In this document: one piece after another, positions 31,285 to 53,251 of the stretch
Numbering within the stretch: position 1 is the stretch's first letter
Layout: each line of letters opens with the position of its first letter
NCBI GenBank assembly: GCA_963749655.1
Contig: CAVVOB010000028.1
Location: 96,001-160,000 of the forward strand
Reading direction: 5' to 3'
From: Nitrospirota bacterium
GTDB taxonomy: Bacteria > Nitrospirota > UBA9217
DNA length: 64,000 bases
Notes under the pieces: model-generated
Told to the model about the DNA's origin: nothing
Database searches by the model: none
Seen by the model: the letters and a program-made list of their open reading frames with translations, nothing else
Position numbers and translations under genes: made by a program

Positions 31285-31314
31285 AGAGCGGTAGGTCCCC
31301 TACCGCTCTTTTTT
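31285..31314 (+). terminator. Intrinsic terminator overlapping the convergent gene's stop
   Basis: AGAGCGGTAG/CTACCGCTCT followed by a T-run. Confidence 0.7.
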
Positions 31315-31923
31315 GTTGGGAGGTCTGGGACCCCGCGAAGGCGGAAAAACCATTTCGGGCTCGGGCCATGACTTTCGGTCCAGTTCCTTGAATAGAGCCG
31401 TGAGTGATCGCTTCAGCTCTTGGTAGGCGGTCTTCGTGAGCGTATTGCTGAACCCGATTTCCACCCCGGCAGTCATGGTTTGAGCCGAAAGCCTGAATCC
31501 CATGGATAGAACGAAGGATTCGTTACTCGGAAACCCGCCCTCTTCCGCCATCATCTCATCAAACTGTGGGAAGTCCTTCGCAAGAGACCATTTCTCGATC
31601 TTCAGTTCGGGATGCCGTTTGCGCCAATCGGAAAAACATCTTTCAATCCCGGCTTCCGCCTCTTTGATCAAGGGCGCGTGTTTTCTTCGGAACTCTTCGT
31701 TCTGCTCGTTGATTATCTGCTGCAATTTATGGGGATCGGATTCAGACCAATGTTTATACACCATCGACGCGATGGAGATCCGGTACCACTCTTTATCAAC
31801 CGTGACGCTATTGGGTCCGCTCGTAAGTGCCTCCTGAGGAAAGATCACCGAGACCGCTAGCGCGATCATCGCGCTGAACAGCGGCACACGGCTGAAAATA
31901 AACAGAAAGGAATTTCGTTTCAT
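31300..31923 (-). CDS. Hypothetical secreted protein
   Basis: 207-aa ORF with hydrophobic N-terminus; no family recognised. Confidence 0.55.
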   Translation of the reverse strand: MKRNSFLFIFSRVPLFSAMIALAVSVIFPQEALTSGPNSVTVDKEWYRISIASMVYKHWSESDPHKLQQIINEQNEEFRRKHAPLIKEAEAGIERCFSDWRKRHPELKIEKWSLAKDFPQFDEMMAEEGGFPSNESFVLSMGFRLSAQTMTAGVEIGFSNTLTKTAYQELKRSLTALFKELDRKSWPEPEMVFPPSRGPRPPNKKER

Positions 31924-31935
31924 GGCGTCGATTCT

Positions 31936-32718
31936 TCATCCTCGAAAATTCCAACCGACCGCAACACCCAAAGCCTGAACGACCACCCCCCCTGCCCAGA
32001 GAGTATTCCGCAACAGCACCATCCGGTAGGTTGGTGCCATGTCATTCAAATCGATTGGGAACGGGATTGTGAGGCCCGCCTTGAGGGTCGATACCCACCA
32101 GAACAGGACTCCAACCGCGAACACGGGGAATCCACCCGCGTAGCCAAGTAAAAAAGCACTGATTCCGGCGCCGGCAACCACGAAATACGCGAGCTGCCAC
32201 AGCCCGCCCAGGGCCTGGATTCCGTACTGCCATGTCAAAGCCACGGTCGTTCCCAGCGGGAACCCGTTTGCTTTCATGTAGGCCCCGGCAAAGCCGGCGT
32301 AGACAGCCGCGCGCAGGAAGAACTCCACAAGTAATTCCGCACAGATCAGAATCAGCGCGCCCTTCGCCCAAAGCGGCAGACTCGCACGGGGACGGGTCAT
32401 GAAAGAGATGAAGGCCGGTCCCCAAAGAGCCCAGTACGCATAGCCCAGCGCCACCACCCCGCAAGGAAGAAGGACGAACGCACCGAACGCCGTTGGATAC
32501 AAGATCACTCCGTCGGCGAGCGAGTGGTGCGCAGACTTCATGAATAGGACGAGGATTGCCAGAGAAAGAAGACCCAGGGTGACCAGGATGATCCCCTCGG
32601 TTTTTGCAACTGTCGAGGCGGAAGTGTGAAGCAAACCCGGAAGAAACCTTACGCTTCCGACAAGTAATCCGAAGACCAGGAGATTCGAGATAATTGATAT
32701 CGATACTATCTTCATCAT
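31936..32718 (-). CDS. Hypothetical multi-pass membrane protein
   Basis: About seven hydrophobic segments. Confidence 0.6.
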   Translation of the reverse strand: MMKIVSISIISNLLVFGLLVGSVRFLPGLLHTSASTVAKTEGIILVTLGLLSLAILVLFMKSAHHSLADGVILYPTAFGAFVLLPCGVVALGYAYWALWGPAFISFMTRPRASLPLWAKGALILICAELLVEFFLRAAVYAGFAGAYMKANGFPLGTTVALTWQYGIQALGGLWQLAYFVVAGAGISAFLLGYAGGFPVFAVGVLFWWVSTLKAGLTIPFPIDLNDMAPTYRMVLLRNTLWAGGVVVQALGVAVGWNFRG

Positions 32719-32774
32719 TGTGATTGTGATCGTGCTTTCGGTAGATACGCTGATTGACCGGTGTTATGATTGCA

Positions 32775-32908
32775 ATGAACCTCCCCGCAGCAAGCTGCGG
32801 GGTATCTGTAACAGGGAAGGCTAATGTCATTTGAGCAACCTGCGGTTTCTCAAACTCTTCCCTTTATAAGGTGACCCTGTAGCGAGCTACAGGGAATTGC
32901 AAGTTCAA
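32775..32908. mobile_element. IS200/IS605-type non-autonomous element (PATE-like)
   Basis: Two sub-terminal hairpins, CCCCGCAG-CAAG-CTGCGGGG and CCCTGTAG-CGAG-CTACAGGG; no ORF. Confidence 0.6.
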
Positions 32909-32964
32909 GCACAGGGAAGTCAAGAACAAAAGGGGGCGCTTTGCGAGACGAGCGACGGCGCCCA

Positions 32965-33452
32965 TTATTTTCGTATGCGAAAGTTCGAAAGCGCTTCGAG
33001 ATGCGTTTTGATCACCTGGTCTTCGGTTCCGGTCGGAACGGCTAGAAAGCCCCGAACAGCGCTCATTCCACCATTGTTCTGATAGGGAATATGACCCGGG
33101 TGACTAACGGCGAAAAGATAATTACTCCCCACGTTAAGAGCATCAAACTGCTTACTGCGGCCAAAGCCACCCCATAAAATCATCGATCTTTTCCCGTGCC
33201 GTTGAGGATCTTTACAATCTGGACGGACAACGCGTCAGCCTCGCTTCGGGTGCCTTCAGCGGAAACAAATTTTTCAACGACGGTTGCAAGAACCAGTATT
33301 GAATTTCCTTCGGCACAGGATTGCAAAGCCTCTTGCGAAATCATTTTTCCTCGCTCCTTACCGTAAAGCGATGACGAAACAACTGCTATTCCGACAACAT
33401 AGCAGAACCATACAATTCCCAAACGTACTTTTGTCATTGCAACCCCGGACAA
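32965..33452 (-). CDS. Hypothetical secreted protein (split near 33185)
   Basis: Two abutting ORFs, the first with a signal-like N-terminus. Confidence 0.45.
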
Positions 33453-33477
33453 AGTCGACTTCCTAATAAAGGAAAAA

Positions 33478-34023
33478 TCAATCTGCGAAAACTACGATCG
33501 ATCGTGCGGCCAGGTCGTGAATAGCCCGCCGTTTTTGACTGAAAGGCAGGGTAAAGAATGAAAGCATTCCGAGAAACGCTTTTATGAGAATCCGGGTGTA
33601 TGCCATGAGTAGCGAGATGCGTTCTAAGGAAGGGTATCGCCTGACCCGCACCCTCATGATCTTCTGGCCGAGCGTGCAAAAGCGGCTGGTGCATAACGGC
33701 TCATATACGAAAAACAGGAACAGGATCAGGCCGACTCGGACCTTGACGCCGGTGTCACTTGCGTTGTCGAAAACATAGGCGATCGAGATAATCGAAGCGA
33801 GAACGAAGCCAACGTCGATTGCCGTCGCGATATAGCGGCGTGTCAGCGTAGGATATTCCCCGTCCTCAACAGCGACTTTTATTTCCCAATATTCCCCCGA
33901 GCCGGACTGCTCGCTGGATACGGCCGGCTTTTGGACGCGCTCCCGGTATTTATCGAAAATGATCCCACAGAAGTTACACTCGATATCCGAGGGTGATTTC
34001 TTATGGCATTTCGGGCATTGCAT
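33478..34023 (-). CDS. RDD family protein with N-terminal zinc ribbon
   Basis: MQCPKC..CNFCG; RRYIATAID, TLGQKIMRVRV and RAIHDLAA. Confidence 0.85.
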   Translation of the reverse strand: MQCPKCHKKSPSDIECNFCGIIFDKYRERVQKPAVSSEQSGSGEYWEIKVAVEDGEYPTLTRRYIATAIDVGFVLASIISIAYVFDNASDTGVKVRVGLILFLFFVYEPLCTSRFCTLGQKIMRVRVRRYPSLERISLLMAYTRILIKAFLGMLSFFTLPFSQKRRAIHDLAARSIVVFAD

Positions 34024-34153
34024 TTGTTTATGTTCAGGTCCTTTATTTATTTGCACGCTGCGTATCAGCGTCCCGGTGTTGAAAATGACAATATTCAAGT
34101 CTGACCCCATTTCGCTTGACGGCGCCTTTTAATGGGTGACCCCATAAGGTACA

Positions 34154-36010
34154 CTACCCGAATGACTGGCTGGGGCCTGCCTGCTTGATGGGCGGTGGTA
34201 AGAGCTGTACCTTGGTGTCCCCAATCGTCAGCGTGTAACCCTTCAGAGAAACCTTAACGCCGTTGACTTCCACAACCTTCGTCGCGCGGTCGTTCTTGCG
34301 TTCGAATTGCATCGGCCATTCTATCTTAGGGATCCTGGGAATGGTGAAAAAGCTCCTCGACTCGTGGAAGCTGATTCTAGTCGTGAAGAGATGTTGCGTG
34401 ACGTCAAAAGCCTGGCCTATCGCATCCAATCCTTGTGCGCGGATTGGCAACCCCTGCTGCACGAAACCCTCAGAGACGATTCCCATCCCATCCTCTGGGA
34501 GTATCCAGCACCAGTCCCCCCGACGACCGAACCTAAACACGGCGCGACTGCCGTTTTGCGTGAAGGGCCTGGGCGTCCAAACCACGTTCTGGAGAGGCCA
34601 GCTCGGGTTGTCGCTCGGAGAGAAAAAACCCGCATCAAGGAGCTCGAGTTCCACCTCAAGCTGTGCATAGTAGTTCGTAACCGATGTCCCTATGCTGCCG
34701 CCCTGCCAGTGGGGGAAGACGCTCACCGTCTGGCTCTCAACAAGCGAGTCAGGGGCATCGAAATCAGGACTGATACTCCCCGCTGATAACGATGGCCGGG
34801 GGAACACAATACCGGCCATGCCTTGCGCGGAGGTGTATAGCGAGTCATCAGGAACCCAGTAGTCAAGATCGGCCTTGTCGACAGTACCTTTTACCAGCAC
34901 GTTATACGCGTAGGGATTACTGCTTGAAAGCTCGATGGGAACCTGGATAACCGGCCACGTGGTGGGCAGGGACCACAGCGATAACCCATATACACGGTAC
35001 ATATAGCTGACCGTGCCTTTTAGGTTGGTCTGCATCTCGAGCTTTACCCTGTAGCCCCCCTTCGGTCCCGGCAACATCGTCTTGCCAAGGATCTTAGCGC
35101 TGACCATGAGACTGGCGGGAACTGGGGCAGGCAGCACGAGGGAGGGCGTAGCCGGGAGGTAGGAGCGGAGTTTCAGTTCAATCGCCCGACTGCACACCGC
35201 ACAGAATCGAGGCGACAGATCTCGCATGGTGCAGCTGTGCTCCGGACGGAATAGCCCGCGACTGTAATAGCCGCCCCCCTCAAACAGCCCGACCGTGCCG
35301 GCGCTGACACTAGGGGGGGTGGGACAGGGCGTCGAGGGCAAGACCAGATCCTCCCACTTGAGCCCGACTCTTGTGTTGTGTGCGGTGATGTTGACTTCCC
35401 AGGGCTCAAGCCACAAGAACCCACCCCATGTGCGGTTGTCATCCGTGCCATTGCAGGCGTAGCACTCGTACTCGTCCGCAAGCCCGAACATATGGCCGAG
35501 TTCATGGATGGCGACTTTTTCCCAGCCTGGCTCACTCGAGAACTTGGCCACGGAACCGCCCGCTCCTACGCCGAGTCCGTTGTTAATGAGCACGAGAATC
35601 GTCGTGTAGTTGGGCACGAACGCGCGTACCGTGTCCTCCACCAGCCACGAATCTATCTGTGGAACGCGTCGAACACCGTAGCCGCAAGTTGCCGAGTCGA
35701 AATAGGTGGCTACCTTATTCCCGCTTCCGGTAGTACCATCCGCGCAGGTCAAGGGGTCGTCAATCCCGGAGTCTGTGGAGCGAACGTCCAGCCGGTGGAT
35801 GTTGATGGCAGACCAACTATCGTGGAAGGGCTGAGTCCAGTACAGAGCCCTCACAAACGCCAAGCATTGAGAGCGGTACGTCTCAATCTCGTCGAGCGTC
35901 GCATCCTGCCGATACCCCTCGGAAACCAGCACGATATTGTACCGGGAGGAGTTCGGCCCGTTGGAAACAAGTTTGCTGTACTGAACAACCCCGCCATCTT
36001 GTCGCCCCAT
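34154..36010 (-). CDS. M64 family metallopeptidase with C-terminal extension
   Basis: NIVLVSEGY, HELGHMFGLADEY, GLFEGG and CTMR..FCAVC. Confidence 0.88.
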   Translation of the reverse strand: MGRQDGGVVQYSKLVSNGPNSSRYNIVLVSEGYRQDATLDEIETYRSQCLAFVRALYWTQPFHDSWSAINIHRLDVRSTDSGIDDPLTCADGTTGSGNKVATYFDSATCGYGVRRVPQIDSWLVEDTVRAFVPNYTTILVLINNGLGVGAGGSVAKFSSEPGWEKVAIHELGHMFGLADEYECYACNGTDDNRTWGGFLWLEPWEVNITAHNTRVGLKWEDLVLPSTPCPTPPSVSAGTVGLFEGGGYYSRGLFRPEHSCTMRDLSPRFCAVCSRAIELKLRSYLPATPSLVLPAPVPASLMVSAKILGKTMLPGPKGGYRVKLEMQTNLKGTVSYMYRVYGLSLWSLPTTWPVIQVPIELSSSNPYAYNVLVKGTVDKADLDYWVPDDSLYTSAQGMAGIVFPRPSLSAGSISPDFDAPDSLVESQTVSVFPHWQGGSIGTSVTNYYAQLEVELELLDAGFFSPSDNPSWPLQNVVWTPRPFTQNGSRAVFRFGRRGDWCWILPEDGMGIVSEGFVQQGLPIRAQGLDAIGQAFDVTQHLFTTRISFHESRSFFTIPRIPKIEWPMQFERKNDRATKVVEVNGVKVSLKGYTLTIGDTKVQLLPPPIKQAGPSQSFG

Positions 36011-36011
36011 C

Positions 36012-36758
36012 TTACGCTCCCCTCTCGTCTTTGAGTGCACTGATTGTGAACGTGACGGTGTTAACAAACTCTACGTTGCCAGCGCGGTCCTCCGACCAGA
36101 ACTCCAGCGTGTGACTGCCGGGGGTGCTTACGACGACGGTGGTTCCCTCCTGCTGGGCTCCGCCGTCCACCTTGTAGTAGGTGTGAGCGACGCCTGAGCC
36201 GCCGGCGTTATCGGTGGCTTCCAGGCGGATAGTAGCCGAGTCGGTGTAGTTGACCAACGTGTTAGAGACCGTGAGGGGAGCGGTCAGGTCAGATCCTGCC
36301 GCATCCGGACCGATGGCCTTCGCGAGCGTGAATCGGGCAATCTCGGTGGGCGGTCTTGAGACATCGAGTTCCGCACCGGGTTTCGGAGGTGTGAATCCAA
36401 ACAGAACCACCGAGTGTGCGTCATCCAAGTCGGGCACCGTTATTGTGTAGAACCCCTCTGGCCGTTCTGTCCTTCTAAACGCCAGGGGCCTTTCCGGGTC
36501 GCCGGTCGCAACCTCCACCCAAGGGTCCAGCGGGTTGCGGTCGAAGCCACGGTATAGGCGTTCGCCTCCTTTGGCTTGAACTTCGTACCAGAAGCGGGCG
36601 CGTGGCTGGTCGGGCCCGAGGTCTGCCGATGGCAGCACAGGCATGTTCACGCTGCGTTCAAAGACGAGTTGGAAGGCGGATCCGTCGAGCGAGAATGTCA
36701 GTCGAATCGCCTGCGGTGGTCGCACGTCATCCTGCGACTGTCTGGAATCAGGCCTCAT
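36012..36758 (-). CDS. Hypothetical protein with C-terminal Ig-like domain, abutting the M64 gene
   Basis: ATDNAGGSGVAHTYYKVDG..GSHTLEFWSEDRAGNVE; stop lies 1 nt from the M64 ATG. Confidence 0.75.
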   Translation of the reverse strand: MRPDSRQSQDDVRPPQAIRLTFSLDGSAFQLVFERSVNMPVLPSADLGPDQPRARFWYEVQAKGGERLYRGFDRNPLDPWVEVATGDPERPLAFRRTERPEGFYTITVPDLDDAHSVVLFGFTPPKPGAELDVSRPPTEIARFTLAKAIGPDAAGSDLTAPLTVSNTLVNYTDSATIRLEATDNAGGSGVAHTYYKVDGGAQQEGTTVVVSTPGSHTLEFWSEDRAGNVEFVNTVTFTISALKDERGA

Positions 36759-37030
36759 GCGCAGCCCCCCCTACGTGCAACCCGGATCCAAGTGGCATCT
36801 TTATCATGCGAATCTCCCGCCCTGTTTTTTCAGCCTTTTCTTCGGAGATAAATTCGGACATCGTTTCCTCGCTTTCCTCGGGCAATTGCTTCGAATTCTA
36901 CTCTATCATTTGCCGGCTTATCTTTTTGGGTGAAGACGTATTTGTGACCGTAGGGGGTCAGTGGATCCCGGGGGCCAGACTTTGAAATTGGCATTCTCAT
37001 CTGACGGCACCCTCACGCGGACCCCTAACC

Positions 37031-37645
37031 TCATTGATTGTTTGCGATCCGAAGCGGCCACTTCCATGCCACAAAAGCCCACAAAATATAATAGGCCGTA
37101 ACAAACAGAAGATTGCGGCCCTGAATGATCTTCTCGACAAAACCAAGGCGCCCCTGGATAAATGTCTCTTGCCAGGAAGTTCCGAAGCCTTGGCCAAAAG
37201 AAAGTACCGCGATCAATATCATCATCGGAAAAAACATGAGCATATTTTTCAATACTTCAGCTCGCATCATATCCTCATCAGCGGTCTGCAGCGATAGTAT
37301 GCCCAGCCCGCGCGTGACCAGAATTGCATAAAATCCGATCAGGGCGCCATGGTCCCTATGAAACAGGTAGGTGGAGGTTCCCAGAATGAAATAGAAAACG
37401 ATCAGCCCCCAGTAAATGCGCTGGAGCTCTTTTGAGCCCCCCTCCATATGCATGACCATTGCCGTGCCTGCCAGGAGGGTGATGGCATGACAGGAGAGAA
37501 ACTCCATAAGGCAAAGCTTATTAAAGCTCACCCAGCCTATAAGTTTTTCACCTGTGCCAAATCGCGGATTCAACCAGGCCATGAAATACAGGAGGGCCGT
37601 AACAACATAGCCGAAAGCTGAATGTAAAGAAGCGTTTAATCTCAT
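37031..37645 (-). CDS. Hypothetical multi-pass membrane protein
   Basis: About six hydrophobic segments. Confidence 0.6.
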   Translation of the reverse strand: MRLNASLHSAFGYVVTALLYFMAWLNPRFGTGEKLIGWVSFNKLCLMEFLSCHAITLLAGTAMVMHMEGGSKELQRIYWGLIVFYFILGTSTYLFHRDHGALIGFYAILVTRGLGILSLQTADEDMMRAEVLKNMLMFFPMMILIAVLSFGQGFGTSWQETFIQGRLGFVEKIIQGRNLLFVTAYYILWAFVAWKWPLRIANNQ

Positions 37646-37687
37646 ACGGTAAACTCTGCACTGAAACCAGTTTTGTAAAGCGCCAAA

Positions 37688-38121
37688 TCACGGTGTCTGC
37701 CCGATATAGTGGCAGTCGGGGAGTTCCTCCATTGCGTCCGTCTGCTCAATCAGTTCGGGATATACGTGGCCAACCAGGAAGCCCATGGACATGTTCAGCC
37801 GAACGAACCGGGTCTGGCCCTGGGCGAGCGTTAACGTCAGTTTTCGTTCGACCTCCGTCGTCGTTGCCAGTTCATAGTTCCCCGGCAAAAGATCGACATA
37901 GAAGAAGCCTCTTGGGACCGCTTGGCCGATCACGGTGCCGTTCAGCTGGACCTTCGGCTGGACCGCCATTCCGTAGGAACCCGAACGGTACAGAGAAATA
38001 TTCTTCCCTTTTCCGGAGATAACGGCGTTATCCTGTCAGCCATCTCTGAGAACTTCGGTCCTGACGCGCAACCGCCTGTCACCACCACAAACAGCAAAAG
38101 AAACCTTAGCATCCTTACCAT
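37688..38121 (-). CDS. DUF2846-like lipoprotein (frameshift near 37985)
   Basis: VTGGCASG lipobox; GRIFL..; QPKVQLNG..GFFYVDLLPGNY. Confidence 0.75.
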
Positions 38122-38140
38122 ATCTCCCTCCCTCATGTGA

Positions 38141-38548
38141 CTATGGATTCACATTCACGGCCGTGATAACAAGCTGTACGGGCTTCTCAAGCGGCGAGAA
38201 ACTTTGCTCGACCGGAAGATAGAATCCGACCAGCCGCGATGAAGAGACGACGATATACGCTTCGTGGATGTGCGACGCTTCAACGGTCAGGATCTGTTCG
38301 CTGCTCTTGAAAACCTGTCCATAGGAAGTCGTACCGATGTAGTTCCACCTGGTATTTGCGCGCAGGGTTCTGTTGTACCCTGTTCCGAGCGATACATTTA
38401 CATTCTTATCGAGTATGAAGGACGAAGATGTACTGTTGTCGGTAACGAGTGCCGTGGGTAGCTGAGTCACGTGGACTACATTGAACGGACATGCATTCAG
38501 CAGCACGATCACGATAAAGAGAAACGCGGACCTGTACGCTTTATTCAT
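38141..38548 (-). CDS. Hypothetical lipoprotein
   Basis: LLNAC lipobox; GGAGG RBS. Confidence 0.72.
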   Translation of the reverse strand: MNKAYRSAFLFIVIVLLNACPFNVVHVTQLPTALVTDNSTSSSFILDKNVNVSLGTGYNRTLRANTRWNYIGTTSYGQVFKSSEQILTVEASHIHEAYIVVSSSRLVGFYLPVEQSFSPLEKPVQLVITAVNVNP

Positions 38549-38714
38549 CGAGCATCCTCCAAAGGTCGAAACCTGCTCATGGTCACTACTGATCATATCA
38601 ACAGCAGCGTCATGACGTACACGAAAATATAAGGCTCCCGGCCACGGGTAAATTTTCGTTTTAAATACTCCAGGAATTGACAACTACCGGGGAATGGACA
38701 CGGTTGATGGGACG

Positions 38715-38770
38715 AGAATAGGACAAACGAATAGAAAAGGCAAGCATCTCGATGGGGTATTTTTGGGGGA
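38715..38770 (-). promoter_or_regulatory. Sigma70-like promoter with upstream TACCC-type box
   Basis: Minus strand: TCCCCCAAAAATACCCCAT, 8 nt, TTGCCT-N17-TATTCT. Confidence 0.6.
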
Positions 38771-38782
38771 GGACTTTACTGC

Positions 38783-38919
38783 AGTTCAAAGTTCATAGTT
38801 CTGAGTTCAGAGTGAAGGTTATGGTTCGCCGGTTGAATTTAATGCGAGATTTTTCAAAAGGGACAACTGCCTGCTGACCTTTACCAACTCCCGACTCAAA
38901 ACTAGAAACTCAAAACTGA
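38783..38919. repeat. Inverted heptamer tandem repeats
   Basis: AGTTCAA/AGTTCAT/AGTTCTG/AGTTCAG facing AACTCCC/GACTCAA/AACTAGA/AACTCAA. Confidence 0.65.
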
Positions 38920-39129
38920 TTTATGACCGCCCGTTCAAAACAGGCCAGTCATTTTGTTGCCATCTATTGATTCCAAGCGGGCCTCAAGTCCGATTAACCT
39001 TTTGATTTAAAATAACTTCAAAAGACTATATAGCTTTGGTCTTTATATTGCAGTCTATTGCAACAAAACCCATGGAAATACTAAAGATCGGGCATCAACC
39101 GAGGTCATCTACGAGAGGGGGAACTCTTT

Positions 39130-39408
39130 ATGCCGCTCCGCAAGATCGATACCCTGCCGGACCCTGACTTGTCAGATAAGACAGTCGTCGAAATCCATGG
39201 CGCAGGCCTCAGACCCAGGGAACTGGACAGCGATACGGTTGTGTTCTGCAGGCACGTCAACGGGCTGGCGCCGGACCACGTTTGCGTCATTTTCAGAAGG
39301 CAGACAGCCGAGACGGGAAAACGCATGTGCGAGGGGTGCGTCATTGATGCGGTACTGTATCGAAGTCAAGAAGCGGTCCGGGATTGTGTTCGCGTGTGCA
39401 ACGCTTAG
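39130..39408 (+). CDS. Small Cys-rich hypothetical protein
   Basis: GAGGGGG RBS; six Cys including CEGC. Confidence 0.4.
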   Translation: MPLRKIDTLPDPDLSDKTVVEIHGAGLRPRELDSDTVVFCRHVNGLAPDHVCVIFRRQTAETGKRMCEGCVIDAVLYRSQEAVRDCVRVCNA

Positions 39409-39466
39409 GACCGGAGGATTCTGACTGACGGTTCTTACGGGGCTTCTTTGCTCCGAATGGAATTTA

Positions 39467-39649
39467 TTATAAACAGGTTTTTTCGATGACCTTCTTTGCT
39501 TCTTCTCTGGTTATGCCGTATTGATAATATATATATAATGACACCATGTCTGCCAGTTGATCCTTGGAAATATCCGGCATGATCTCGAGGATCTCTTCCT
39601 TAAAATAATTGGCTGCTTCACAAAGCGGCATGTCGTCTTTCTTGATCAT
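39467..39649 (-). CDS. Small hypothetical protein
   Basis: AGGGGA RBS; 60 aa with protein-like helical composition. Confidence 0.6.
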   Translation of the reverse strand: MIKKDDMPLCEAANYFKEEILEIMPDISKDQLADMVSLYIYYQYGITREEAKKVIEKTCL

Positions 39650-39874
39650 TCTCGTTCCCCTTTCCTCTCCGGAAGTTGCGCACCTGGTTCAGAACAAGCC
39701 GGCCGCCTGCATCAATAGTAGCAAGTATAGCATAACGCAAAGGAAGTCGAGGGACATCTTGAGGAAGCGGGACAGGGTGGGATTTTTCTTAAGGGTTTAT
39801 AGACTTGACGTCAGCTCCTGAGCATTGGTCGTCACTCAGAACTCAAAACCAAGAACTCAACACTGCAGTAAAAA

Positions 39875-40845: not shown

Positions 40846-40929
40846 GGTATCTCCGTCCCATACAGTCGCCTAATTAAACTATACTCCGTTTTTTAGGCGC
40901 CCGCGGAAACGTGAGGGACCGTGCAAATG

Positions 40930-41119
40930 TGATAGCCTCGTAATAGTTGTCATTCCCGCTTGTCGGGAATCGTGTTGCCGCTTAACGCACTGATAAGATA
41001 CGATTCCAGACAAGCCCCGACTGGTCGGGGCCGGCCGGCAGCGCCCCGCATCAATATTTCACAAGAAGCGGGGAATGGCTGTACTTTGGTGATCTTCGAC
41101 TTTTTACGAATACATCAAG
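40930..41119. mobile_element. Inverted copy of the MITE/REP element at 27627
   Basis: The reverse complement of 41085-41119 closely matches 27627-27660; internal GTCATTCCCGCTTGTCGGGAATC. Confidence 0.7.
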
Positions 41120-41340
41120 TGTAGAACCTTACCAACTGCGGAATGGAAAAGACAGCGGTCGGTAGTCGGCAGCAAGGGGCACGGAATGAAATTGCGATTT
41201 GCGGATTCTAAAACAAGCTGAAAGCTGCCCGCTGACAGCGTGTTGAATTTTAAATTGCGGATTGCCGGCTTCCGGCATCCGGACCCTGGCTACTGGCCCC
41301 AGGACCCCGTTTCTAACGACCTGAGACATGAAACAGACCA

Positions 41341-42306: not shown

Positions 42307-42833
42307 TGAGGATATCTCCTTCAATTCCTTTTGTTTGAAGAACAGGAGTTATCGTGGAGGGACTGATTGATTATAAGGATATGCGGTCCGGTGTCAAGGC
42401 CGGGAAAGCCGGGTCCTGGGTCCAGCACAGCCGGGGTGCGGATGTCAAAAGACCGCAAACCCGGAAAGAATTTTTTTATGCTATTATATACCGCAAGAGG
42501 GGGGGGCGAAAGGAGCAATGATGAGTGCATTCGTTCAGGAAGCCGCGAGTCCGCGCCTGTCATCGGTCCGAAAAAGAACGGCACGGAGGTCCGTCAAATG
42601 GACCAACCTCTGTCCCTATACCCTCGAGGACCGCAGCAAGTGCTCTTCAAAGAAGCCCTTCAGGCGCGTGTGTGCATACACTCTCGAGGCCGGCTGCAAA
42701 TGATCCCGGCCGATTGTTTATTCTTGATCTGTAATGGGGATTCTCACTGGTCTGAGGAGTTGGGCCTTGAAATATCAGTTGCGAAAATTTACAACTGGCC
42801 GTTAAATCGCGGAAAATTTCGAGCGGCCGCAAC

Positions 42834-43058
42834 TTGCGTAATCGAAAATCTATGCTATACTTTGAGCCAGGTTGTCTGAAATCATTCAACACAGTTTGCC
42901 TTGGGTTTTGAGAGGAGAGGTACCGCAAGTATACAAAATGCCTTCATGCATCATGCGGTGTGCAAGCCCTCACGGAAGCAGAGAGGGTAGCCTAAAGCAT
43001 GTGCTGGGGCGGACTACTTGTCAACCAGCCTCGCAACTACTCAAAACTCAAGGCAGAC
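42834..43058 (+). ncRNA. Candidate ncRNA: sigma70 promoter plus 165-nt rod-like hairpin
   Basis: TTGCGT-N16-TATACT with TG; 19-bp closing stem 42894-42912/43040-43058 and nested stems. Confidence 0.45.
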
Positions 43059-43128
43059 CTTAATTCCCTTCTGTAAACCCCTCGTAGACTGAAACAACCT
43101 CAATCCTCTCGGCAATTTAGAACCCCAC

Positions 43129-44135
43129 ATGGGGTCAGACATCGGAAACTAGGTTTTATCCAGCTGTCTTTTGATCTTGGCAACGTGTCCGGCCATGCTC
43201 AAGCGTTCCGGTTCATAGCCGCTGATCGAAGCTCCGTCGATGGAAAGATAGGCCGCTATATCTTTGACCGTATGACCCATGCTTCGCGCAACAAAGCTGA
43301 CAACATTTCTCGCTCTCGTTACAGTTCTAACACGCGTCCCTGACCGAAGTGTCGCCTTATCAATGCCTTCTGTGCGTTCTACCGCGTCCGCGATGTCATC
43401 CAATGACACCCGTTTCCTTTTTGAAGAATTATCTTCTATCCGCTCAGCCAGCACACGTTCGACAAACGCGTCGCTTCCCTTCAGCCTCTGATCTTTGACA
43501 GCATAGACTTCATCGGGTTTCAGATCCTCCGGTTCCCGCATGAATTCCCGATACAGGCGCTTCGCCCGGGACTTACTCTCCGAGAACATCCTCAATACAT
43601 GATCCGTATCAACCAGACTCAACGGGTTTAATTTTCCCGAATAGGCATGATGACTGCTCCAGGGGTAGCGGTCCAGACGGTCGGCAATCTTGGCTCGGAG
43701 GGAATTTCTCTGGAGATACCGGAGCAAAGCCAGCAGGTACTCTTCCTTCTCGCACAGGATCGCCTTGTAACGTCCCTGGAACTAATGGCCGACCGTACGG
43801 TACTTGTGGTTGTAATAGAGAGTGTATCGTTGATTGAGGCCCTGGAGTATCTTGGACAGCGGTATCTCTCGGGTTTCGATCAGAAGATGAACATGGTTCC
43901 CCATGAGAATATAGGCATGGAGGAAGAACTTATAGCGGTTTTTATAGATCGCGAGGAACTGGAGATATTTCTGGTAATCCGGGGTATCTTGGAAAATCTT
44001 CTGGCGCTGGTTGCCGCGGGTAATGATGTGATAGAATGCGCCCTCGTACTCGATGCGAGGTTTGCGTGCCATGGCGCAAGAGTATTAAAAGGCGGCGCAG
44101 ATGTCAATAACCTAATTTCCGATGTCTGACCCCAT
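43129..44135 (-). mobile_element. RAYT-like HUH (Y1) transposase element with 27-bp terminal inverted repeats
   Basis: ATGGGGTCAGACATCGGAAA(C/T)TAGGTT at both ends, 26/27 identical. Confidence 0.8.
43149..44072 (-). pseudogene. REP-associated tyrosine transposase-like gene with C-terminal HTH and an in-frame TAG at 43782-43784
   Basis: MARKPR, YHIITRGN, LMGNHVHLL (HUH), GH*FQGRYK, RYLQRN, YPWSS; DnaA-C-like tail. Confidence 0.85.
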
Positions 44136-44145
44136 TCGGTCCCCC

Positions 44146-44664
44146 TTATCTTATGGTGCCTGAGAGGACAGGGACGAGACCAGCAATATCAGCCCCATTC
44201 ATGTCTTTTGTAACAAGGCCGGACAGACTGAAGTCCTCCACCGTGGGGCTATACCCCGCTGAGATCGAGCAGTTGACGGTGGAGAACTCCCCCATACTGA
44301 ATCCGTGTGCGCTGGCGATCACGATTTTTATCGTTGCCGGGAATGTGCCTGAAGCCGCCGAGTATACCCCATACGTTATCGAATCCGGGGCCGCCGCACC
44401 TGATGCAGTAACTACGCCGTCGTCGGTCCATGGCGGGTTCACGGTACTGTTCGCCGTAACTCCCGGCGGCAGAGCGAGAGTAACATCTATGCCGTATATC
44501 ACGGTTGCAGTCCCTGATGTAGCCAGCGAGATAACTGCCGCGGTCGGCTGAGGCGCTGCGTTGTTGCCGCCCCCCGTGCTGCCGCACGCAGCAAGCATGA
44601 GCAGCATCAGTATAAATGTCAGGGATCCTGGATTCACCATTTTCTTCATAGAAGTATTCTCCAT
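44146..44664 (-). CDS. Lipoprotein, putative cohesin-like beta-sandwich
   Basis: LAACG lipobox, Gly linker, IYGIDVTLALPPGVT..IVIASAHGFSMGEFSTV. Confidence 0.65.
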   Translation of the reverse strand: MENTSMKKMVNPGSLTFILMLLMLAACGSTGGGNNAAPQPTAAVISLATSGTATVIYGIDVTLALPPGVTANSTVNPPWTDDGVVTASGAAAPDSITYGVYSAASGTFPATIKIVIASAHGFSMGEFSTVNCSISAGYSPTVEDFSLSGLVTKDMNGADIAGLVPVLSGTIR

Positions 44665-44674
44665 AGAAAAAATT

Positions 44675-47600
44675 TTACCAGATTATCAAGCCGACTGCCC
44701 GTCTCAGGATCACGACAACATCTCCTATGTCGATCGTTCCGTTCGGCTGGGGCTGCCCGTTTACGAGCGGCGACACGTCGCCGTGGACTAGATCGTCGGA
44801 TGTTGCCGTCTCGACTCCCGCTACGATGCGAAGAGCCTTAAGAGCATCGGTCACGTCAACAATACCATCTTTGTTAAAGTCACCGTCCGGCACCCACCTG
44901 ATAGTCGTGCTAGTAAAAGTTGCCGTTACCCCACCGATGGTAAGCGTCGTATCCATTGCAGTTGAATAGGCGTCAGATGATATTTGCCGCACCACGACTG
45001 CCTGTCCGTTTGTTATGGTCCCGGTCTCTGAAGTGTACAAACCTCCGTCAATGGAATACTTTCCTCCTGTGATGCTGATAGATGCAGGCGTATTGATACC
45101 TGTCACTGTTATGGAATCCGATATAATTTCGCTGTTCAGAGAGACATCAATTTGACTCGCAAAAACAAAAGCATCGGGCTCGCGATCCAAATATTCATAT
45201 GCTCCGATGTCCACATACTGGCCTAAGACTCTCGGATTTCCGTCAATGTCTTTGGATAGCATGGAGGGAGCGGAGTTTTCCCCCGCATCGATCAGGGGTG
45301 AATTCGACGAAAGATGATAATCACCGGCGGACTGGTTATTGAACAGAGGATCTCTATTCAGATTAGAGCCCTCGATCGTGAAAGTACCCGATACTTTATC
45401 AGGATCAAAATCATTGTTAAAAGCATTTACCGTCGAACCAAGACGAGAATTATCTATGAAAATTTCGCCGCCTTGCTGGTCTGCATTACCCCATATGACA
45501 TTGCTGTACATATTGACGACCGTCGTATAATTGCCTATATGGAGATAGAAGCCGGCGCCGCTCTGCGTGCCTGCTCCATTCCCGCTTATCGTGTTGTTGA
45601 TAACATCGGCGTTCCCGGCAACAAACAAGTACAAGCCGGCAAATAAATCGCTGGCATGATTGTCAGTGATGACATTGCCGGATACGATCAATGAGCCGGG
45701 ATTATTAACGTTGACTCTAGCGCCTCCTCCAAAGCTTGCAGTATTGTTGCTTATTATATTTCCAGTGAGATTTACGGAACCGCTTGAGCCCATATTTATC
45801 CCACCAACCTCATTCGCGGCCGTATTATTCTGTATGATACTGTTTGATACGGCTATCCGGTTGCCGTTGCTCCACAAAAGCAGCCCTCCGTTATTGTAAG
45901 CTTTGCCGTTTTTGATGGAAACGCCGTCAACAACGAGCTGAGCAGATGGTGTGCTGTTCAATCCGTAAATGTAAAGGACCCCCGGGGAACCATATCCCTG
46001 ATCTATATTTTCTCCATCAAGAACCGTATTGGCAGGATTGAGGTCCCTTACAGCGCAATCCAGAGAGACGCCGGAGTACCCCCCCTGGAGAACGAGGCTA
46101 TAGGGCTTGTCAGTTTGATAAGAGAACGCCGACCTGTTGTTCTCCGATATGCCATACGTCCCCTGTAGTATTTTAACGATGTTGTTTTCATTGTTGATCT
46201 TTGCATTATTGAGCGCATTTTGAAGTTCTCCACTTGTATGTACACAATGGACCTGAGTGCAGGCATCTCCAAAACCAAAGCCATTGGAGTCAAGTTGATC
46301 GGGATTGTATGTCGTCGGACAATTGTCAAGAACATCCGCGATTCCATCACCATCGGCATCCAGCGCTTCGACTCCCGCAGTAGTAACGGTGAAGACATCA
46401 CTCATTTCGCCGATGAAAAGGGTTGCTTCGACCGTTGTCGAAGCGCTTGATGATGAATTTAGACGAACTGTAACCGCCTGACCATTGACGACAGAGCCCA
46501 TAAGAGAAGTATATACTCCCCCATTAATCGAATATTCTCCACCGATAACAGCAATGGAAACGGGGACGGTGATGCCGGTAATTGTAATCGTATTCGAACT
46601 GACGAGCGTGTTGATTTGAACGCCCGTCTGATCCTCAAGTACAAAGGCATCCGGCGTGGCATCTGAAGCCTCTGTTGTTACGGAGAAGATACCTGCAACA
46701 TCGCCAATCGTGAGGCTGGCACCAGTGGTCGTTGAATTATTCGGAGAAGACGTGACCCGTAATCGAACCGAGTCGCCGTTACGAATCGTACCGGCTGTGC
46801 CGACCCACTGACCGCTGTTATCGACCTCATACTCGCCGCCGCTGATTGAGATCACAGCAGTACTGTTTATCCCGGTCACAGTAATGGCATTCGACATGAC
46901 CTGGGCGTTCACTGTGATGCCGGTTTGAGCGATAAAGCTGAACGCGTCGGGAGTGGCATCGTATGCGACGATCTTTCTGATACGGTGATCGCCCGTGTCG
47001 GCGATATAGACATCTCCCGTACTGTCGAAAGCAACACCGGAAGGCCCGTTCATGCTTGCATCGGTGGCAGGGCCGTAGTCGCCGGCAGAACTGTAATCTC
47101 CATTTCCGGCTATTGTACTGATCAATCCGGTTGAAGCATCTACCTTCCGAACATTATACGTGTCAGCAATGAATAAATCTCCCCCGCTCGTGACGCTGAT
47201 GCCGCGCGGGTTATACAATGTGCGCCAACGTGGCAGCACCGTTGTCTCCGGAGTATCCGGAAGTTCCATTTCCCGCAACGGTCGTTATCAATCCTGTTGT
47301 TGCATCTACCTTCCGGATACTGCTGTTATTCGTGTCCGAAATATAAATATTCCCGGAGCCGTCAACGGCCACAGCCTGCGGCATTGCAAGGCTCGCTGCT
47401 GTGGCAGGACCATTGTCTCCGGCATAACCGTAACCGTAACTGCCGGCAACAGTCGTGATCACGCCGGTAATTGCGTCCACTCTCCGAATACGGCTGTTAT
47501 ACGTGTCCGCAATATATATGTTGCCGTAGCTGTCAAGGGCGACTCCAAAAGGAACGCTGATCCACGCTGATGTCGCCGGTCTGTTATCTCCCGAATACCC

Positions 47601-50600
47601 TCCTGACCCACTGCCTGCCACCGTCGTGATCACTCCGGTAGTTGCATCCACTCTCCGAATACGGTTGTTATTCGTGTCTGCGATGTAAATGTTCCCGGGA
47701 CCGTCGACCGCTATACCCCGGGGAGTAAAGAGACAAGCTGCTGCAGCCGGGCCGTTGTCTCCGCACAATCCAGAAGTTCCACTGCCCGCTACGGTTGCGA
47801 TAACGCCTGATAATGCGTCTACCCTCCTGATACGGTTGTTGTCTGTATCCGCAATAAAGATGTTGCCTTCCCTATCAACAGCAATGTTCCCGGGTTCAGA
47901 AAAGAGTGCGAAAACAGCAGGCCCGCCGTCTCCAGTATAGGCCCCGCCATAGGCACTGACGCTGACCCCCGCTACCGTAGAAATAACTCCTGTTGCTACA
48001 TCAACTCTTCTGATGCGGCTGTTATTCGTATCGACAATAAGAATTCCCGTTGCCTCTGCGACTACTCCACGAGGAGAAGCCAAACTTGCTGACACTGCAG
48101 TCCCCTTGTCGCCGGCAAATCCTGACGTGCCCGTTCCTGCTATCGTGGTGATGACTCCGCTCACAGCATCCACCTTCCGGACACGGTGATTAGTTGTGTC
48201 AGCTATATATACATTGCCGCCGCTGTCGGCACTGATACCGCTCGGGTAATACAATGCTGCCGATACTGCAGCGCCGTTGTCTCCGGAATATCCAAATGTT
48301 CCATTACCAGCCACGGTCGTGATCACTCCGGTAGTTGCATTTACCTTCCTTATGCGGCTGTTACTCGAGTCCGCAATATAAACATTTCCGGAACCATCGA
48401 CCGCCACGCTTTCCGTATAACTGAGGCGAGCAGTTGTGGCAGGACCGGTGTCTCCGGAAAATCCATACGTCCCATCGCCCGCTATGGTCGTAATAATTCC
48501 TGTTTGTGCATTTACCTTCCTGATGCGGTAGTTGCTTGTATCTGCGATATACATATTGTTAAAGCTGTCTACAGCAATTCCTCCAGGGTTGATTTGTGCT
48601 GAAGTGGCCGGTCCATTGTCTCCGGAAAAACCTGCGGTCCCATTGCCAGCCACCGTTGTGATCACTCCCGTCTCTGCGCTTATCTTTCTGACGCGTTCGT
48701 TGTTCCCGTCACTGAAGTAGATATTTCCTGCGCTGTCGAGCGCTACACCCACCGGATAGCTTAGCGCAGCTGACGAAGCAGCACCGTTATCCCCTGAGTA
48801 GCCGGCCGAACCATTACCGGCAATAGTAGAAATCACTCCTGTTGCAGCATCGATTTTTCGTATTCGATTCCCGGAAGAATCTGCAATGTATATGTTTCCG
48901 ACTGCGTCTTTCGCCGCGCTGGAAGGATGCGCAAGTCTTGCCGTGGTCGCCGGCCCGCCGTCACCAACGCCTCCGGCTATAGTATAGATATCCCCGATGT
49001 TGTACAGATTGTATGTTATTGATGTTTCCGCCGGGTACGCTGTGAGATCCCCCATGTTCCGTACCTGCACGCCGACCATATACTCTCCGGATTGATAGCC
49101 GGTTGTGTCCCAGCTCCAGGTATTGGAGGTCGAATAGTCCTGAACCGTTGCCCAGGTCCCCGCAGTCCGAAGTCGAAATTTATACTCGTAGTGACCTGTG
49201 CCGCCGCTGCCGGTGGCTATGAACGAAACAAGCGAGCCGGCCGGCTGAGGATTCACAAGGTTTGTCGTCAGAGCAGCGCTGATATCTGATGACGTTACAA
49301 CACCGAAGGTGGATGAAACCCATCCGATTGTCAGAATGGTATCGGTCCTTGTGCCGTACGTTGGTGCTGACATCTGGCGCACCCGGACAACGTTGCCGTT
49401 GACAACGGTGCCGGCCATGCTTGTCCAAGTTCCGCTGTCGTTGACCTCGTACTCGCCGCCCGAGATTGTCAGTGGCGCAGGTGAATTGATGCCCGTGACA
49501 GTGACACTGTTCGATATAATCACCGTATTGATCGCTGCATTCGTCTGTTCACTGAAGATGAACGGCTCAGGCGTCGTATCGGGAGGCATAGTAGTAACTC
49601 CGAAAGTATCGGAAACCCCTCCAATCATCAGAACCGCGTTGGTCGTCGTAGAATACCTTGATGACGACATCAGCCGTACCCGGATCGTATCGCTATTGTT
49701 GGCGGTCCCACTCGCGCTCGACCAGATCCCGCTCCCGTTGATTTCGTACTCACCGCCCGAGATCATAATCGTTGTGGCCGCGACAATACCGTTAACGGTG
49801 ATGCTATTAGAGATAATCATCGTATTGGTTGCCGCGTCAGTCTGGTCGGTTAATGCGAACGGATCCGGCGTGGTATCGGGTGGCAGGGTGGTAACACTAA
49901 AGGTATCGGAAACCCCTCCGATCGTCAGAACCGCATTGGTCGTTGTTGAATAGGCTGAAGACGACATCAACCGAATACGGACCGGATTCTCGTTACTCAC
50001 CGTTCCTGTCTGAGACGTCCAAAGCCCGCTATTGTTGATCTCATATTGACCGCCTGTTATCGAGATCGGAACTCCTCCTGTAATACCGGTGACCGTTATT
50101 GTATTCGAAGTAGCAAGCGTGGACAGCGGGAAGTTTGCCTGGTCAATGAAACTGAAATTATTTGGTGGTGTGCCCCACGGAATGACGCTATTTGAAGCTT
50201 CTGACTCCGGCCCGGTTCCGACTGCGTTTGTCGCCCTTACCTTAAAGGTATAGGCCGTGCCGTTCATGAGTCCGGTCACGATGTGCGTAGTATCAGGCGA
50301 TCCGCCCGTGCTGTCCACACCGCCGACCGGATTTGATATTACGGTATACGCCGTTATCGGGCTGCCGCCATCATAGGCCGGCGCCGTAAACGTTACGGTC
50401 GCTGACTCATAACCTGCAATCGCTGTGACATCGGTCGGTGCGTCGGGACCCGTCTGCGGGGTCATAAGAGTATACGCGGTCATGCTTCCCGGGATAAGCG
50501 TGCTTTTATTCATGGAGGTTGCTTCCTGCCCATCGCCTGCAAATGCATATACCGTATGCAATCCCACAGTTTGTGAAGGGATAGTGAAACTTCCGCTATT

Positions 50601-52847
50601 GTCCGCTACAGTTGCATGCTGCCACGCGCCGGTCCACGTGTCTACTTGATAATATATATTTTGCACAGTGGGGGCTATGGGAGAGTAGCTGCTTGTTGTG
50701 GTATAACTAAGGGTAGGATTGCTGACGAGCGCAGTATTGCCCTCCAGCGGAGTGATGGCGACGGTAAGCGGAATGGGCTGGACCTCTTGTTCAGAAATGG
50801 CCGTAACATTAGCACTTGTATAGTTTGCCACGTATATCCTGTTCGTCGCCGGATTTACCGCGAGGGCGATCGGAGATGAACCGACTGCAACAGATACCGT
50901 TGTATTCGTAGCTCCATCGATCACGGTCACACTTGCATCGCCATTATTCACGGCGTATATTTTGTTGGTGGCAGGGTTCACGGTCACATCTTCGGGAAAC
51001 GCCCCTGCGCCGACACCGGACGTGCTGTTTGTTGCGCCGTCTATTACGGTTACGCTGGAGCCACCATGATTCGTGACATATATCCTGTTTGTAAACGGAT
51101 TTACTGCAATAGCATGGGGGAGTGAACCGACCGCGACAGTAGTTGGGACGTTCGTAGCTCCATCTATGACTGTTATACTGCTACTTTCATAATTTGCCAC
51201 GTAGACCTTGTTAGTGACGCTGTTCACGTCTATAGCACAGGGAGACGAGCCGACGGTAACCGCAGCTGTATCATTCGTGTCGCCGTCAATCACGGTTACA
51301 TTATTGTCGACGTGGCTTACGACATATATATTATTAGTGACTACATTAATTGCCAGCGCAGTCGGGAAAAGACCCACTGCGACATTTGTAGTCCCGTTCG
51401 TTTCTCCGTCAATAACGGTCACGGTATTGGTCCCGTTGTTTGAAACATAGATTTTATTGGTGACCGGATTTATTTTTATATGCTCGGGATTCGCGCCAAC
51501 GGGAACCGTTGTTGTCGTATTGGTCAAGCCGTCTATGACGGTTACTGTATCACTGTTATAGTTGGAGACATATATCTTGTTTGTTACAGGATTCACAGAG
51601 GCTTCGTACGGATATCTACCGGTCGCTATGGTAGCCGTCGTGTTGGTTTCGCCGTCTATCATCGTCACCGTGTCGGCGAGATAATTTGTAACATACACCT
51701 TGTTCGTTACAGCGTTCACGGCCACGGAACTGGGGCTGGAACCCGCATCAATAGTCGTGGTGACATTCTTCGCTCCGTCTATCACGCTGACGTTTTTGCT
51801 CCAATTATTCACCACGTATATCTTATTGGTGACGGAGTTTGCCGTCACTGCGACGGGGTACGAACCTGCGGATATTGTGCTCGTGGCATTCGTCGCCCCG
51901 TCTATTATGGTCACCACACTGCGGTTCGCCACATATACTCTGTTGGTAGCGGTGTTTACAGACACGGACCCGGGCTGCCAATCAGCGGCAATCGTGGTTG
52001 TTCCCTCCGTTGAGCCGTCTATGACCGTGACATTATAGCTTCCTGAATTTGCCACATAGATCTTGTTGGTGACGGGATTCGCTGCCACAGCGGTAGGATA
52101 CGATCCGGTTGCAATGGTGGCCGTGCTATTCGTCGCCCCGTCTATAACCGTAACGGTATTGCCCCAATAATTGGAAACGTATATCTTGTTAGCAACGGGA
52201 TTGACAGCTATGCTTACCGGACCGGAACCCGCGGTGATGGTTTCTAGGGCATTTGTTACCCCATCAATGACCGTTACGCTTGCACTATTCATGTTTGCCA
52301 CGTATATTTTGTTCGTAACGGGGTTTACCGCCACCGCATTAGGACTTGTCCCCGCGGTAACAGTGGATGTGGTGTTCGATTTCCCGTCGATAACGGTTAC
52401 ATTAGCACTATTAAAATTTGCAACATATATCTTATTGGTGATTGAGTTTACGGCTATTGCCATTGGGCAGGAACCGACGGCGACGGTCGACGTGGCGTTC
52501 GTTGCACCATCTATGACGGTAACAGTGTCGCTGCCTCTATTCCCCACGTATATTTTATTAGTAATAGAATTTACTGCTACGGGCCCTGGACTCACACCCA
52601 CCGAGACAGTGACGGCTGCGTTCGTCTCGCCATCTATCACGGTCACGGTTTGGCTGTCGAAATTCGTCACATATGTCTTGTTCGTAACAGGATTCACCGC
52701 TGCGTCAAGAGGGTTCGATCCGACGGGTATCGAAGCAGTTACATATTCGGCTTGAGCCAACAATGGTGCAAGCAGAAAAACACAAAAGAACATCGAGCAT
52801 ATGGCAACAGAGAGTGCCGGTTTCATAGATCTTCTAAAATGTTTCAT
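44675..52847 (-). CDS. Giant (about 2720 aa) secreted adhesin-like protein with C-terminal dockerin-like domain (1-nt frameshift near 47222)
   Basis: Signal peptide; 16 YVTN-type repeats; FN3; 6 DxTPDxF-type repeats; 12 NHL repeats; TSP3 motif DADGDGIADVLDNCP; beta-helix; GDFNKDGIVDVTDA..GTIDIGDV. Confidence 0.88.
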
Positions 52848-53251
52848 ATTATTGATACCCTCTTGTCATAAGGATCTTTGGAAACGTTCTTGCTATTTGA
52901 TAGTGGGAATCATATACAGGACAGGCTTAAAGTTTGTCTTGTTTCCCTTCTGCCAATTGAACCCCTGCTGGACCCACTCCGGGCGTCGCGGCATTTAAAG
53001 CTTTCTATTCCAGACGTCGTTCATATCGCAAAATGTGCCCGAGGCATTCTGCGAAAAACGCTCTTAAACACTGATCATAATGCCGTACAGGCGTTGAAAG
53101 GTCAGACCTTGAAGTAAAGGGACAGCCTCAATTCTTCAAACCCCTTTGCCGACCTGCCTGATCGAGGGATGGGATTTCAATTCGAAATGTGGAAAGAACT
53201 GTTTGAAATGATTTGATTAAACAGCGGAATCCATCGTAGCTGGATAGCGTG

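Follow-up and report, generated by a model that had tools for sequence, protein, structure and literature searches.

The window analysed here, a stretch of 64,000 nucleotides from a Nitrospirota bacterium (C28:96001-160000 of genome G000, which comprises 4.27 Mb in 39 contigs), carries at 43129-44140 a transposase element whose end motif recurs among the genes of the surrounding region, about 31300 to 53120 (Table 1). A 38-nt inverted repeat starting ATGGGGTCAGAC (43129-43166 and 44098-44135, 84% complementary) flanks the Y1 transposase gene, and this bears out an earlier reading of the letters alone, hereafter the original prediction, in which the recurring motif was taken for the end of an HUH transposase element. 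The encoded protein of 307 amino acids contains the Y1 domain PF01797 in a Pfam search, while PF08299 (Bac_DnaA_C) matches its C-terminal helix-turn-helix (HTH) with E=6e-7 and a score of 29.8, slightly below the curated cut-off of 31.5. Its residues H60, H62 and Y119 are unchanged across five aligned proteins of this type, and one in-frame TAG at codon 98 (43782-43784) breaks the open reading frame. An intact copy with the same ends lies at C13:71243-72261 (its gene at 71318-72241), with 77% nucleotide identity over the full length and 76% protein identity, and four more distant paralogues are found on C23 and C30. Judged by these domains and by the consensus of the terminal inverted repeats (TIRs), the recurring motif is the TIR of a TIRtron, an element carrying a TIRYT transposase of TnpA-Y1 subclass 2.1, and comparison with multi-copy relatives places the element tip probably ~7 nt outside the GGGG. 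The TIRtron is thus a real feature of this locus, belonging to a named but uncharacterised element class.

TIRYTs and TIRtrons go back to Di Nocera et al. 2013 (PMC3733652), and TnpA-Y1 subclass 2.1, with the TIR consensus GGGG[AT][CG]A[CG] (GGGGWSAS), to Quentin et al. 2018 (PMC6006769), who call for further analysis of the class. As in the available portions of both accounts, a Y1 HUH domain with an HTH/Bac_DnaA_C extension lies here between GGGGWSAS TIRs, and extra solo, dimeric or clustered TIR copies are present in the genome. Tip position, orientation bias, one-ended duplications of neighbouring DNA, IS1111 targeting and a mechanism, all treated below, are absent from those portions, and in the open literature we found no paper on a TIRYT mechanism or on TIRYT cassette arrays. 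With the REPtrons and their TnpA-REP enzymes (RAYTs) the element shares an HUH enzyme, short repeats close to the 3' ends of genes and cleavage or transfer 5' or 3' of the site (excerpts of PMC8266576 and PMC3733652). However, its flanks are linear TIRs with no GTAG-tagged hairpin, in contrast to REPtrons of TnpA-REP groups 2.2 and 2.5, and the transposase gene itself is multi-copy and mobile. The NCBIfam model REP_Tyr_transpos scored 70.6, below its cut-off of 80; the most IS-like RAYTs are those of Group 1, according to the excerpt at hand of Bertels et al. (10.1101/119735). Membership of IS200/IS605 was rejected on the length of 307 amino acids, the inverted ends and an NF033573 score of 21 bits against a cut-off of 55, the lack of target duplication being a trait common to that family and TIRtrons.

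The behaviour of TIRtrons was followed across the bacterial family, where 44 of 64 genomes have matches to the intact protein, at 195 places, 150 of them among the matches listed. From the upper part of the lists 54 loci were fetched, long contigs being favoured, and together with four loci of this genome they gave 69 elements; 40 of the 150 places of DDE insertion sequences (DDE ISs) among the matches listed served as the control, and genes were called by our own dicodon model. The TIRtron gene is multi-copy, with up to 17 matches per genome, and near-identical copies stand at unrelated sites and stay alike up to 7-14 nt outside GGG[AT]C (loci L097/L099/L101/L102 and L072/L081/L084); the element ends are placed ~7-11 nt outside this motif. 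A flanking direct repeat longer than 6 nt was found in none of 44 two-TIR elements, with 225 offsets tried, as against repeats of 5-9 nt at DDE ISs with clear ends. Moreover, the outer 7-mer of the tip was reiterated at 20 of 88 ends, compared with 0.6% at random positions. Tandem duplications that run from the tip and end mid-gene involve part of the element in L032, L070, L084 and L086, and the clearest duplication of a passenger is that at L089:3170-5756, where a DSBA/thioredoxin gene stands immediately upstream of a TIRtron in three tandem copies, two of which are cut short at TIR tips. At L104 a repeat-protein block is duplicated starting at a TIR tip, and tips in L101, L099 and L073 break further genes. 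As an observation in its own right, L036:3626-9891 holds a tandem of three TIRtrons, belonging to two types, that take turns with low-GC genes, everything being on one strand. At L025, L029, L031 and L104, TIRtrons and solo TIRs lie among large genes rich in repeats, behind which come small low-GC genes; by appearance these sets resemble RHS/YD toxin-immunity blocks.

TIRtrons in this set also lie in line with their neighbours. The nearest gene was co-oriented with the element in 52 of 63 cases upstream and 57 of 65 downstream, compared with 20 of 38 and 18 of 39 for the DDE ISs, and with one element counted per locus the figures were 42/52 and 48/55. Of 21 solo TIRs, 17 shared the orientation of the local transposase, and 30 family loci in which the tip is marked by the end of an IS1111-family element (described below) were mostly co-oriented, as counted by eye. 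For such IS1111-marked tips in metagenomes the count (36/72 upstream co-oriented) is uninformative, because left and right ends are indistinguishable there. A replication-strand cause is ruled out by the finding that 28 of 58 TIRtrons lay on the inferred leading strand, as called by a classifier that was right on 157 of 179 test chunks. Since the elements are aligned with local genes and not with replication, transcription is suggested to expose the strand, and selection against operon clashes could contribute to the co-orientation as well.

To compare copies of the motif on one scale, we used a profile made from 88 TIR ends of the family, including the two ends of the 43129-44140 element itself, with a pass score of 13 in the window. 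Exact GGGGTCAGAC occurs three times in the window (43131+, 44133- and 34108-) and 14 times in the genome, where 3.2 are expected, and 26 profile sites in the genome score 18 or more, against one in the reversed genome. Within the region, scores above 13 were obtained at 44133 (22.1), 34108 (18.9) and 43131 (13.5) and at an in-gene site, 32422 (13.4), while 34143 reached 8.7, 36969 reached 6.0, and 37025 and 53097 stayed below 3. By this measure, 34108 is the only clear solo TIR among the copies that had been cited outside the element. It has the hexamer TTGTCA where intact left ends show a conserved TTG at +17 to +19; a sigma-70 scan of this TIR and of the left TIR of the 43129-44140 element gave no match. 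The copy reported at 36953-36994 does run in the opposite orientation, but it is worn, and its 20 identities out of 25 with 34086-34110 are reached with two 1-nt gaps, the ungapped figure being 18/25. The copy reported at 53097-53116 had to be given up as a TIR, as nothing similar to it was found and, by our estimate, chance alone would give ~0.7 exact 8-mer matches in 22 kb. Also rejected were GGGGTC at 31334, which is ordinary coding sequence whose 87% identical homologue keeps the same C-terminal residues, GGGGTCC at 41308, which is part of another short repeat family, and GGGGTTG at 33452, for which no support was found. On sequence comparison, then, several of the copies cited in the original prediction are chance matches or the end of another element.

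That other element accounts for the second TGACCCCAT predicted at 34137-34145. This motif is present and is a TIR that holds the stump of an IS1111-family element: positions 34110-34136 are a ~27-nt right end of such an element, and a further TIR follows directly after it. The same composite of stump plus TIR stands at C23:100714-100789, behind another foreign gene. The end pattern GGGTCACCCATTWAAAGG occurs in 40 of the 64 family genomes, its reversed control in none, and at least 122 matches were found in metagenomes, where a scan for the composite gave no match. Three full copies (L012:1380-2907, L020:9836-11357 and L071:8225-9753) encode an IS110 DEDD transposase (for L071, NF033542 at 178 bits against a cut-off of 140, with PF01548 and PF02371), carry CCAT[AT]TAAAGGGCACC at both ends and 16-bp sub-terminal repeats set 7 and 3 nt in from the ends, and have a non-coding region of 401 nt downstream of the transposase gene. 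When the IS1111 is taken out, the TIR is restored as GGGT-CA-GGTC. Among matches to the far end, GGTC comes next in five of eight, the three with mismatches being set aside as unrelated. Candidate guide words, GGGTCA together with a GACCT-like word, are found in the non-coding region of eight distinct elements chosen by that pattern, with one mismatch case, L085. From these comparisons, the element ending at 34110-34136 belongs to the IS1111 family and has the CA core of the TIRs of TIRtrons as its insertion site. Sub-terminal inverted repeats 7 and 3 nt from the ends and a long non-coding region 3' of the gene are the IS1111 criteria in the available text of PMC11187229, and a DEDD IS110 recombinase and a single insertion position within a repeat are likewise common to our elements and the known IS1111s described there. 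The same text reports IS1111s in the ends of other elements, namely IS4321/IS5075 in Tn21 TIRs, ISPa11 in REPs (repetitive extragenic palindromes) and ISKpn4/ISPst6 in attC; the target found here, the TIRtron TIR (GGGT-CA-[GA]GTC), differs from these and is not named in that text. Since the stump is followed directly by a further TIR, an IS1111 would have entered one TIR, after which a second tip would have joined onto the IS1111 end. Further loci of this IS1111 are L145-L174 and L187-L307; many copies are short stubs within a TIR, and L015/L157 are non-autonomous copies.

The original prediction had also placed the motif immediately behind stop codons. It is true that GGGG[AT]C starts 10, 5 and 1 nt past the stops of the M64, 37031 and 44146 genes, the second of these being the GGGGTC joint at 37025, but the hexamer has no genome-wide bias to stops: it begins within 10 nt of the stop in 16 of 3752 genes (a background of 0.4%, with three of the 16 in this region), and these 16 same-strand cases compare with 25 on the opposite strand. 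Three of the 14 genes of the region correspond to P ~1.5e-5, a post-hoc value. For whole elements, a co-oriented stop lay no farther than 35 nt from 13 of 33 left TIRtron tips, as opposed to 3 of 36 DDE IS ends (Fisher 0.004), and six of these 13 stop-proximal genes read into the TIR.

Table 1. Features of the region by position in the window
Feature	Position	Strand	Basis
TIRtron, TIRYT gene between GGGGTCAGAC terminal inverted repeats	43129..44140	-	Inverted repeat, full-length identity to C13 copy, tips
Y1-HUH transposase, Bac_DnaA_C-like C-terminus, pseudogene	43149..44072	-	Pfam Y1_Tnp and Bac_DnaA_C
Solo TIR facing RDD gene, 85 nt upstream of RDD ATG	34077..34110	-	Profile score 18.9
Outer part of second TIR (TATGGGGTCA, 10 nt past M64 stop) and ~27 nt of IS1111 right end	34110..34153	-	Sequence comparison
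Worn double-ended remnant: plus-strand TIR-like 36969 and GGGGTC joint 37025	36953..37025	.	Score 6.0; end of G014 homology
Cargo: RDD-family membrane protein	33478..34023	-	5/64 family genomes, each a different neighbourhood
Cargo: peptidase M64 (618 aa) and upstream OmpL47-type domain gene	34154..36644	-	Pfam, homologue lengths
Cargo: membrane protein, no known family	37031..37645	-	4/301 phylum genomes, twice a fragment
Cargo upstream of left TIR: small lipoprotein and very large beta-propeller surface protein	44146..52847	-	
Spacer repeats	32774-32908, 38696-38922, 39831-39869, 40930-41123		
Spacer repeats	41137-41315, 42833-43072, 53250-53308, 39471-39668		

The cargo genes were then compared with their relatives. 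The RDD gene is carried in five genera, this genome counted; a co-oriented TIR lies 61-111 nt upstream of it in four of the five genomes, where TIR types and spacers are unrelated to one another, and the fifth has a worn tip just past the stop. A homologue of the 37031 gene in genome G014 is 91% identical, and the homology stops 1 nt before the GGGGTC of the window; in G014 an HNH gene comes next, without a site between. Remnants of the 37031 gene of 130 and 195 bp lie in TIR-bounded patches of G066 and G068, and a 167-nt contig, too short to count, shares 32 nt with the end of this gene and has a TIR-like inner side from 37026 on. M64 is full length (homologues measure ~590-665 aa) and is matched in one of 200 other genomes of the phylum. 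The stop of the lipoprotein lies ~13 nt from GGGGTCAGAC, and a frameshift near 47220 splits the beta-propeller gene. No gene order common to the region and its relatives was found; in a search for a conserved empty locus, no syntenic anchor was found. A comparison of gene content between relatives, proposed as a check along with the original prediction, agreed with it in that content is not conserved around solo and derived ends. The described make-up of the region also held in so far as most genes are on the minus strand, unrelated and in many cases exported or membrane-bound, but the aldo-keto reductase is not exported and M64 has no obvious signal peptide, as read from its N-terminus; with 2995 of 3813 adjacent gene pairs of the genome on the same strand, same-strand neighbours are also usual in the genome at large. 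From these comparisons, cargo travels among TIR-rich islands, but its boundaries are not constant and it brings no site with it.

These comparisons bear directly on the idea that the region is an integron-like array assembled without an IntI. As in integron arrays, the genes are co-oriented, unrelated and often exported accessory genes with sites close behind stops, and the sites are targeted by IS1111-family elements (known for attC from the available text of PMC11187229). In contrast to integron arrays, the joints vary and cut genes, and a gene has no constant site of its own. Cassette membership was rejected for the 37031 gene, which lacks a site behind it in G014 and is fragmented in G066/G068, and for the RDD gene, which has differing TIRs. 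Four sites examined for attC-type hairpins fold no better than shuffles (z -0.85, 0.21, 0.99 and -1.65; no attC model was run), and TIGR02249 has no match on C28, the window included, its matches lying on C29, C38 and other contigs. The same gene beside different TIR types, the fragments, the mid-gene joints and the lack of fold speak against integron-like assembly, one of the two options of the original prediction. With its fixed-cassette tests failed, an integron-like reading keeps, in a loose form, a small share of our credence. Integron-integrase-like genes do occur elsewhere in the genome, at C29:9153-9992 (scoring above the curated cut-off and interrupted by a stop) and C38:149610-150547 (split).

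Taking the evidence together, we consider it probable that the island has been churned by TIRtrons and that its gene joints were made by imprecise one-ended strand transfer at the tips; in this best explanation, and with equal likelihood, the cargo genes would be passengers or bystanders of the churning and not unit cassettes with a site of their own. While junction geometry, tip position, the lack of target duplication, orientation and IS1111 targeting are observations, the enzymatic steps are modelled on TnpA-REP, which, by the available part of PMC8266576, cleaves on the 5' or the 3' side of its site and links a 3'-OH with the 5'-phosphotyrosine. The transposase would bind the GGGG strand when it is single-stranded, a state probably supplied by transcription, and would nick it 5' of GGGG, just outside the end. 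The tip would then be held as a 5'-phosphotyrosine and resolved by a nearby foreign 3'-OH, so that it is joined to unrelated DNA at imprecise positions. For the broken copy at 43149..44072, the intact C13 paralogue may act in trans. With inverted ends there is one site per strand, and one-ended products are therefore expected, namely deletion of a flank, tandem duplication of end plus DNA, and reiterated tips. Within the region itself, this explanation is supported by the homology with G014 that ends at GGGGTC and by the IS1111 stump that is cut off by a second TIR.

Several points count against this explanation. Tip joining alone does not account for TIRs whose inner side faces the cargo, as at 34108 and at the RDD gene in four of five genomes, for which a second cut or a plain deletion is needed. 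Excision, a circle or an empty site was not seen, the sole sequencing run found, of DNA (none of RNA was listed), consisting of low-depth contigs without the joints, and DDE ISs and other elements also accumulate in such islands. The co-orientation is barely above that of ordinary genes, with a mean of 0.79 against 0.71 within 6 kb (p=0.04), and ordinary genes match the orientation of near neighbours 79% of the time. In 26 loci of other lineages the bias was absent (9/21 and 10/21), so that a general co-orientation across phyla was not found. Flanking genes are not lower in GC3 (GC content at third codon positions) than those beside DDE ISs, there being no difference upstream and a higher GC3 downstream, and low-GC cargo was therefore dropped as a special trait. 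The counts are not independent because the genomes are related, nor were the loci drawn at random. Finally, a rank test on stop distance gave p=0.07, with the DDE ends placed roughly in many loci.

A bolder version, to which we give roughly one chance in four or slightly more, is that TIRYTs are a distinct HUH class carrying out transcription-aligned one-ended transfer, and that bacteria of this family use co-oriented TIRs for loose gene capture and amplification, building surface and defence islands without an integrase from copied, truncated and re-joined units of end plus gene. Further removed from the churning model, and in our view improbable, is an HUH-driven platform for gene shuffling, in which co-oriented TIRs would be single-strand recombination sites, circles of TIR plus gene would re-insert at tips, and the array would be kept for its adaptive cargo. 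The three of 14 genes ending within 10 nt of the motif, the RDD gene with its co-oriented upstream TIR, the tandem TIR-plus-gene units of L089, the alternation of TIRtrons with low-GC genes in L036, the alignment of solo TIRs with the local transposase and a Phd-ParE pair that starts near TIRs in three genomes would all suit such a platform. However, a given gene has a different TIR type and spacer at each occurrence, gene fragments and joints inside genes are frequent, the blocks between sites hold from one to several genes and are of very different sizes, the orientation bias is absent outside the family, neither circles nor alternative orders were seen in the one shallow run, and ~25-40 TIR-like ends per genome are spread over many contigs. 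The least favoured alternative is a passive graveyard, in which TIRtrons and short derivatives insert like REPs behind genes of an otherwise-assembled island and decay by deletion, marking joints without causing them: REPs do lie near gene 3' ends and even supply stop codons (PMC3733652, text in part), at least five other repeat families sit in the region's spacers, several of its genes are broken and the stump-plus-TIR composite stands behind stops at two unrelated sites, but simple insertion would leave both halves of its target, whereas the tips are fused mid-gene with the other half missing or duplicated, and the reiterated tips suggest that the tip itself reacted more than once.

Tyrosine transposases of subclass 2.1 occur widely, and no description of their mechanism was found in the open literature. 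From the junctions one would expect the nick to fall 7-11 nt 5' of GGG[AT]C, the target to stay unduplicated, a single end to be joined to arbitrary 3' ends and the polarity to follow transcription, not replication. Should passenger genes be moved by this joining as well, accessory-gene islands could arise without an integrase. New in this work are the controlled orientation test, one-ended duplications of passenger genes at nucleotide level and the explanation of the 34137 copy by IS1111, and the TIR core entered by the IS1111 would be a further natural target of a putatively RNA-guided recombinase.

Further observations concern the contents of the islands. The Phd-ParE toxin-antitoxin pair was found at L011:11315-11985, C23:124391-125061 of this genome and L098:9232-9908; in two of these genomes its start lies no more than ~20 nt from a TIR tip and in the third beside a TIR-like inner side, and in two of the three it is truncated at an identical position, where the following gene begins. 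Four genes of the region are broken, the surface protein (47211-47278), a DUF2846 lipoprotein (~37990) and the aldo-keto reductase (~40290) by frameshifts and the transposase by its stop, which may reflect decay or assembly error. The spacers are filled by other dispersed repeat families or conserved non-coding stretches, at least five in number, which recur in the genome or across the family (Table 1), and an Rfam scan of 30000-54000 returned no match. The stretch 37002-37020 looks by eye like what we take to be a group II intron domain VI, although it is too short to assign, and group II intron-like 3' ends, also recognised by eye, adjoin TIRs at L018:5800-5945 and at C27:47928-48213 of this genome.

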